From: Escherichia coli
GTDB taxonomy: Bacteria; Pseudomonadota; Gammaproteobacteria; Enterobacterales; Enterobacteriaceae
NCBI RefSeq assembly: GCF_003334405.1
Contig: NZ_QOWM01000066.1
Direction: 5' to 3' (one strand)
Length of the DNA stretch: 418 nucleotides
This document shows, in pieces, positions 1 through 418 of this stretch. The first letter of the stretch is position 1. Each line of letters opens with the position of its first letter. The notes below the pieces were generated by a model. It searched no databases, was not told where the DNA came from, and saw only the letters and a program-made list of their open reading frames with translations. A program made the position numbers and the translations under genes.

Positions 1-30
1 ATACATGATCAAATACTCCTTACATAAATA

Positions 31-36
31 AGGTGA
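31..36 (+). promoter_or_regulatory. Shine-Dalgarno ribosome-binding site (AGGTGA) for the transposase start codon
   Basis: AGGTGA at 31-36 is followed by a 4-nt spacer (ACAA) and the ATG at 41-43, which is the start of the conserved MELKKL... N-terminus. Confidence 0.55.
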
Positions 37-40
37 ACAA

Positions 41-418
41 ATGGAACTTAAAAAATTGATGGAACATATTTCTATTATTCCCGATTACAGATAAGCCTGG
101 AAAGTAGAGCATAAATTGTCAGGCATCCTACTATTGACTATTTTTGCCGTTATTTCTGGTGCAGAAAGTTGGGAAGATATAGAGGATTTCGGGGAAACAC
201 ATCTCGATTTCTTGAAGCAATATGGTGATTTTGAAAATGGTATTCCTGTTCACGATACTATTGCCAGAGTTGTATCCTGTATCAGTCCTGCAAAATTTCA
301 CGAGTGCTTTATTAACTGGATGCGTGATTGCCATTCATCAAATGATAAAGACGTCATTGCAATTGATGGAAAAACGCTCCGGCACTCTTATGACAAGAGT
401 CGCCGCAGGGGAGCGATT
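41..418 (+). pseudogene. ISAs1-family transposase (H repeat-associated protein), N-terminal 125 codons, interrupted by an in-frame TAA at 92-94; 3' end lies beyond the window
   Basis: ATG at 41 with upstream SD. Frame 2 translates to MELKKLMEHISIIPDYR then TAA (92-94), then continues with no further stop through 418: [108 protein letters not shown]. Similarity to the family continues on both sides of the stop in the same frame, so this is a nonsense interruption and not a frameshift. After the stop the first in-frame ATG is at 320, which probably explains why the ORF track did not report this frame. If the TAA is a sequencing error this would be an intact CDS. Confidence 0.7.

Follow-up and report, generated by a model that had tools for sequence, protein, structure and literature searches.

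A 418-nt AT-rich stretch of Escherichia coli DNA as the probable 5' quarter of the ybfL (H-rptC2) H-repeat pseudogene of the RhsC element

The insertion sequences of the ISAs1 family are elements of about 1.2-1.5 kb with short terminal inverted repeats that end in CAGGG, according to their description in ISfinder. The intact reference for the H-repeats of this family is yhhI (b3484), the H-rptB of the RhsB element, which we take to be the element listed in ISfinder as ISEc1. A 1,291-bp H-repeat with three copies in RhsC was reportedly described by the Hill laboratory in the 1990s, in agreement with our own measurement. H-repeats have been associated with the C-terminal tips of Rhs proteins and are listed as insertion sequences, and their transposition has not been observed (PMC3032704). 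In Salmonella, H-repeat remnants in the O-antigen clusters of groups D2 and D3 have been compared with yhhI of E. coli (PMC3715488).

The stretch of DNA analyzed here (418 nucleotides, in the following called the window) is identical at 418/418 bases to ybfL (b0705), the H-rptC2 of E. coli K-12. Indeed, a comparison with strain MG1655 revealed no difference in sequence, nonsense codon or neighbours. The window corresponds to positions 104-521 of H-rptC2, i.e. a leader of 40 nt followed by codons 1-126. On our K-12 locus sequence (L001) it occupies 20001-20418, which by coordinate offset is about 736785-737202 of NC_000913.3. Judged by this sequence comparison, the window is very probably (we estimate about 95%) the 5' quarter of the H-rptC2/ybfL pseudogene, an ISAs1-family H-repeat at the distal end of the E. 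coli RhsC element. The locus is already known and annotated. Database matches were found in 5,214 of 5,426 complete E. coli genomes (median number of copies per genome, 5); identity to the window was 99% or more in 2,149 records. Among these more than 2,000 records, the inspection covered four loci with 100% identity, namely that of K-12 and those of three unrelated strains. The features of the window are the following.

1..40, + strand: 5' leader of H-rptC2 (element positions 104-143), conserved in the yhhI, ybfQ and ybfD copies
30-35, + strand: Shine-Dalgarno-like AAGGTG, 5 nt before the ATG
41..418, + strand: ybfL (b0705) ISAs1-family transposase pseudogene, codons 1-126 of a 378-codon ORF that continues beyond the window
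62..322, + strand: DDE_Tnp_1_assoc N-terminal domain, residues 8-94 (Pfam PF13808, E = 7.7e-33, model positions 2-88 of 88)
92..94, + strand: in-frame TAA nonsense codon at codon 18, C to T at window position 92
116..118, + strand: TTG, Leu26 of the full frame, where the ybfL pseudogene feature of NC_000913.3 starts (by the coordinate offset between L001 and L010)
344..418, + strand: start of the catalytic DDE_Tnp_1 domain, from residue 102 (Pfam PF01609 in YhhI)

The assignment to the family was also supported at the protein level. The 126 window residues, with Gln in place of the stop, scored 126.9 bits against the NCBIfam equivalog model for ISAs1 family transposases (NF033564, cut-off 70 bits), and the window carries a single transposase ORF of the ISAs1 type (H-repeat/ISEc1 group). 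In full-length YhhI the DDE_Tnp_1 domain (PF01609) spans residues 102-343 (E = 1.7e-29), so that the catalytic domain begins within the window and takes up its last 25 codons. This part contains the motif VIAIDGKT, whose Asp109 (GAT at 365-367) would provide the first residue of the DDE triad, considering its position in the domain. The model score, together with the DDE_Tnp_1_assoc domain, bears out the sequence-only reading, which had recognized an ISAs1/H-repeat element and had stated that the window itself holds no cargo; the latter statement was correct as well. A sequence search of the PDB with intact YhhI (E <= 1) returned no relative of solved structure, and an Rfam scan of both strands (E <= 1) returned no RNA family in the window. 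The number of promoter-like sites in the window (3) did not exceed that in shuffled sequences (1.7 ± 1.3). Terminator motifs were likewise not above the shuffled expectation, with one weak terminator-like hairpin inside the ORF at 189-207. Antisense ORFs of 30 and 67 aa lie within the transposase frame and were regarded as fortuitous. The longer one starts with ATG and runs over 131-334 on the minus strand, probably by chance in AT-rich DNA.

The window copy was compared with yhhI. The two copies represent the same 1.29-kb element with a 378-codon ORF and the same domains, and both are located just 3' of an Rhs tip and a small downstream gene. Over the window they share 94.5% nucleotide identity, the difference amounting to 22 nt, one indel in the leader and 5 amino acids. 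They differ, too, at codon 18, which is CAA (Gln) in the open frame of yhhI and TAA in the window, a stop that the sequence-only reading had not mentioned. The window frame translates as MELKKLMEHISIIPDYR, the stop (window 92-94) and then AWKVEHKL…. The codon is CAA in all three other K-12 copies that were aligned (yhhI, ybfQ and ybfD), with Gln18 in intact YhhI. In K-12 the TAA is the sole defect of the 378-codon ybfL frame, which otherwise differs from YhhI by 8 residues, and it removes more than 95% of the transposase. The window copy thus lacks the open transposase frame of a functional ISAs1 element. The C-to-T change of Gln18 from CAA to TAA therefore makes the copy a pseudogene from which the transposase is not made, and which is not an active mobile element; we infer that any YbfL product is absent. 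PGAP labels the K-12 CDS as 'ISAs1 family transposase, internal stop', starting at the ATG at window position 41, whereas NC_000913.3 has a ybfL pseudogene at 736900-737961 that starts at the TTG 3' of the nonsense codon (window 116), so that the two annotations of the locus disagree.

The nonsense allele is widespread. The exact 71-mer with the TAA was found in 2,669 independent complete-genome records, which makes a sequencing artefact implausible, and the allele is present in about half of the complete E. coli genomes. The CAA form of the 71-mer occurred in only 5 records. These were considered as possible intact versions of the window allele, and the two that were inspected were 3'-truncated and interrupted by a stop at codon 60, respectively. 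In strain ARL09/232 (L009 8980-10116), the copy linked to yafV has CAA at codon 18 amid ybfL-type sites and a new stop at codon 60; this CAA arose either by reversion or through a short tract of conversion.

The element of which the window is a part belongs to an array of three tandem ISAs1-family H-repeats (C1, C2 and C3) at the 3' end of RhsC, between kdpFABC/ybfA and ybgA/phr. The copies are arranged as follows.

L001 19518-19897: H-rptC1 (ybfQ), a 380-nt 5' fragment that ends exactly at the left repeat of C2
L001 19898-21188: H-rptC2 (ybfL), full length, 1,291 bp, with 18-nt inverted repeats CAGGGAAAGATCACGTAA and …CTTTCCCTG
L001 21189-22143: H-rptC3 (ybfD), without left repeat and with an internal deletion, immediately after the right repeat of C2

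H-rptC2 is the only full-length copy of the array. The junctions between the three copies were read directly. The inverted repeats of H-rptC2, CAGGGAAAGATCACGTAA / TTTCGTAATCTTTCCCTG, are 18 nt long, 89% complementary and begin with CAGGG. The two arms (L001 19898-19915 and 21170-21187) lie outside the window, the left one 104 nt upstream and beyond its edge, and the 1,291 bp between arms agrees with the size and the terminal repeats of the ISAs1 family. On the left the element is flanked by the truncated H-rptC1 and on the right by H-rptC3, which is without its left repeat. Because the ends of C2 abut C1 and C3, a flanking direct repeat (target-site duplication) is not definable in the array. 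The C1/C2/C3 junctions resemble nested or abutting insertions that were followed by deletions.

The gene order in K-12 is kdpFABC, ybfA, rhsC, ybfB, ybfO, ybfC, ybfQ, ybfL, ybfD, ybgA, phr (phrB). The end of rhsC lies some 3 kb upstream of the window; the gene encodes a product of 1,397 aa that scored 2,683 bits against the NCBIfam RHS_core model (NF041261, cut-off 2,000), so that the H-repeat array is indeed adjacent to an Rhs element. The gene ybfO is an orphan Rhs fragment (RHS_core model positions 908-1261) with its own tip, which is followed by ybfC. The AT-rich tip, the small downstream gene and the module of orphan core fragment and tip that mark an Rhs element are thus all present. An rhsC or RHS core gene was found upstream of the window in every 100%-identical locus inspected, and the three unrelated strains have the same neighbourhood. 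The GC content of the various parts is listed below.

rhsC core: 61.6%
rhsC C-terminal tip, last 480 nt: 40.4%
ybfB: 31.2%
ybfC: 36.7%
H-repeat block: 38.9%
ybfD, truncated copy: 39.7%
housekeeping flanks: 51-53%

The tip, the presumed immunity genes and the H-repeats form a sharply bounded block of 31-41% GC, as compared to 62% in the core and 51-53% in the flanks. A Pfam search of the C-terminal regions of RhsC and ybfO (L001 16513-19435) yielded the RHS core motif but none of the named toxin domains, and NCBIfam gave no match for either YbfB or YbfC. By analogy with the general literature on Rhs systems (PMC3150448, PMC3967940), the tips of RhsC and ybfO may act as toxins and YbfB and YbfC may provide immunity. 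It had been predicted, without sight of the flanks, that Rhs cargo or a surface-polysaccharide cluster might be found there. The former prediction was correct, with rhsC upstream in all four loci and the tip, ybfB, ybfO and ybfC in the K-12 arrangement. The latter failed: the 36 features in the ±20 kb around the window in K-12 include no glycosyltransferase, wzx/wzy or sugar-nucleotide gene, and the three other strains have no polysaccharide genes within ±12 kb. In this respect the copy differs from the Salmonella remnants, which belong to the same ISAs1/H-repeat family, underlie the polysaccharide prediction and reside in O-antigen clusters, whereas the window copy has no polysaccharide genes within 20 kb. 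Flanks that consist only of housekeeping genes with the GC content of the window, which would have spoken against a mobile origin, were not what we found, considering the adjacent Rhs genes and the 51-53% GC of the flanks.

The composition of the window was evaluated separately. A recount gave 159 G+C out of 418 (133 A, 126 T, 87 G and 72 C over the whole window), or 38.04%, the very number reported before, and per 100 nt the GC content is lowest at the 5' end (30%) and reaches 41% towards the 3' end. All five rare codons that had been listed are used in the frame from the ATG at 41-43, with 7 occurrences: AGA at 89 and 266, AGG at 407, CGG at 380, ATA at 179, and CTA at 128 and 131. The five codons account for 1.47% of the 7,159 codons in the 19 housekeeping genes around the matching K-12 locus, so that 1.8 would be expected in the 125 codons of the window versus the 7 observed (binomial P = 0.0026); when CGG is left out, the numbers are 6 observed versus 1.05 expected (P = 0.0007). 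The GC content at the third codon position is 34.9% in the window frame versus 58.5% in the 19 neighbouring housekeeping genes. The comparison with the background that the sequence-only reading had asked for gave 38.0% for the window versus 51-53% for the flanks; 418-nt windows of the latter had a mean GC content of 51.9% (sd 5.6%) and only 2.5% of them were at 38% or less. The downstream flank includes the ybgOPQD fimbrial operon (L001 31137-36011), which may explain some of the AT-rich windows in this 'housekeeping' baseline. The low GC content and the excess of rare codons in the window are beyond chance.

It might be argued that the low GC content reflects local conditions in the E. coli chromosome, such as an AT-rich region or relaxed selection after pseudogenisation, rather than a foreign origin. 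The 2.5% of flanking windows that are equally AT-rich and the tendency of pseudogenes to drift towards AT are in line with this explanation. Nevertheless, intact yhhI is 94.5% identical with almost the same base content, the truncated ybfD has 39.7% GC, and the 31-41% GC block is sharply delimited beside the 62% core and the 51-53% flanks. Since intact yhhI and truncated ybfD are similarly AT-rich, the composition predates the inactivation, and we consider a purely local cause improbable. The low GC content (38-41%) and the codon usage are in fact common to all H-repeat paralogues and set these apart from the host background of 51-53%. The earlier description of the window as horizontally acquired mobile DNA can thus be upheld for its composition (38.0% GC, rare codons), from which alone we infer the horizontal acquisition, whereas present mobility is contradicted by the TAA at codon 18.

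The H-repeats of the Rhs loci show clear traces of recombination. In some strains the ybfL locus has a ybfL/ybfD chimera instead: strains E2865 and CFSAN064035 have a single truncated copy in place of ybfL and ybfD (L002 12041-12799 and L004 12041-12799), which is a clean C2/C3 chimera with its crossover at element positions 652-656, 3' of the window. Another natural single ybfL/ybfD chimera constitutes a further variant of the RhsC array (L008 8980-9738). A deletion of about 1,300 bp that fused ybfL and ybfD also arose in a laboratory-evolved K-12 line (PMC10044804). In strains E2865 and VCSW8 the ybfB/ybfO module is missing and ybfC directly follows the RHS core gene, an arrangement that would fit displacement or deletion of the Rhs tip.

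Exchange between loci is suggested by a second H-repeat that carries the TAA. In strains E2865 and 503025 (L006 and L007, 11940-12357) this copy adjoins yafV and lies downstream of a T6SS Hcp-VgrG-Rhs-ydcD cluster. It is a pseudogene that shares with the window the TAA at codon 18, the linkage to Rhs genes and 98.6-98.8% identity. It differs in its chromosomal site, in a 3' part that is yhhI-like, and in the additional stops of some alleles, such as that at codon 208 in strain 503025. Over the length of the gene, the yafV-linked copies alternate in blocks between ybfL-type and yhhI-type sites, a mosaic pattern that indicates gene conversion between Rhs-linked H-repeat paralogues. The dN/dS between copies was 0.05-0.13, and it was 0.05-0.07 between the two stop-carrying copies. 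Taken by themselves, such low values could point to continuing selection on the reading frame beyond the stop. They are explained, however, by the block-wise exchange of old alleles, and with the block mosaic recognized, selection on the dead frame was set aside as the main cause, although it may still have played some part. The H-rptC2 copy is not mobile but recombinogenic.

The other readings of the window should be judged against these data. That it would represent an intact and potentially active ISAs1-family insertion sequence with an expressed transposase, as the term 'mobile DNA' implies, has in its favour that the 378-codon frame is open except for codon 18, lies only 8 residues from YhhI, and is accompanied by both terminal inverted repeats and a ribosome-binding site. 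However, the TAA eliminates nearly the whole protein (>95%), the copy is a pseudogene in both the PGAP and the K-12 reference annotation, it resides at the identical chromosomal site in all strains inspected, and H-repeat transposition has not been observed according to the literature (PMC3032704); this makes an active element extremely improbable. That the window would stem from the paralogous H-repeat near yafV and not from the RhsC locus is very unlikely too. The yafV-linked copy has the same TAA and an identical 71-mer and is also Rhs-linked, but in the two strains it differs at 5-6 of the 418 positions (98.6-98.8% identity), whereas the RhsC-linked copy was 100% identical in every strain examined.

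The nonsense allele could also be maintained because a product of restart downstream of the stop (e.g. at TTG 116) or an RNA was domesticated for a host function, possibly the regulation of other H-repeats or the promotion of Rhs tip shuffling. The preponderance of the TAA 71-mer (2,669 records versus only 5 with CAA), the K-12 copy without a second defect and the dN/dS of 0.05-0.07 between the two stop-carrying copies are the arguments in favour. The last of these is explained by conversion, in blocks, between alleles of the ybfL and yhhI types, and a wide distribution is what one expects of an old neutral mutation that is inherited vertically. Moreover, other strains have added stops (codons 60 and 208) or lost the 3' half, there was no Rfam match, and neither promoter nor terminator motifs rose above the shuffles, so that we hold domestication to be most doubtful. 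A related and hardly more probable idea is that the Gln18-stop allele was kept, and spread among Rhs loci by gene conversion, since the host benefits from a full-length H-repeat that is silenced; such a copy might act as a movable patch of homology for the shuffling or deletion of Rhs tips and immunity genes, or yield a restart product without the first ~25 residues.

The reading of the window as part of the H-rptC2/ybfL pseudogene, in contrast, suggests the following course of events. The H-repeat sequence would have entered Escherichia from an AT-richer donor, considering its GC content of 38-41% and its codon usage. A single DDE transposase, composed of the N-terminal DDE_Tnp_1_assoc domain and the catalytic domain, would be the product of an intact element and is expected to act on the 18-nt terminal inverted repeats. 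H-rptC2 itself is moreover locked in its array, between a 380-nt fragment and a copy that is without its left end. Its present role would be that of repeated DNA only, which recombines with its tandem neighbour and probably exchanges tracts with the H-repeats at other Rhs loci.

The window is a textbook part of RhsC in K-12, and the significance of its identification beyond a correct annotation is small. The copy should be labelled as a pseudogene and not as a transposase. The flag that was raised for foreign DNA on basis of composition pointed correctly to a polymorphic-toxin locus in the unseen flank. Finally, as substrates of recombination, through tandem deletion and conversion between loci, the H-repeats can confuse both genome assembly and orthology calls in the vicinity of Rhs loci.
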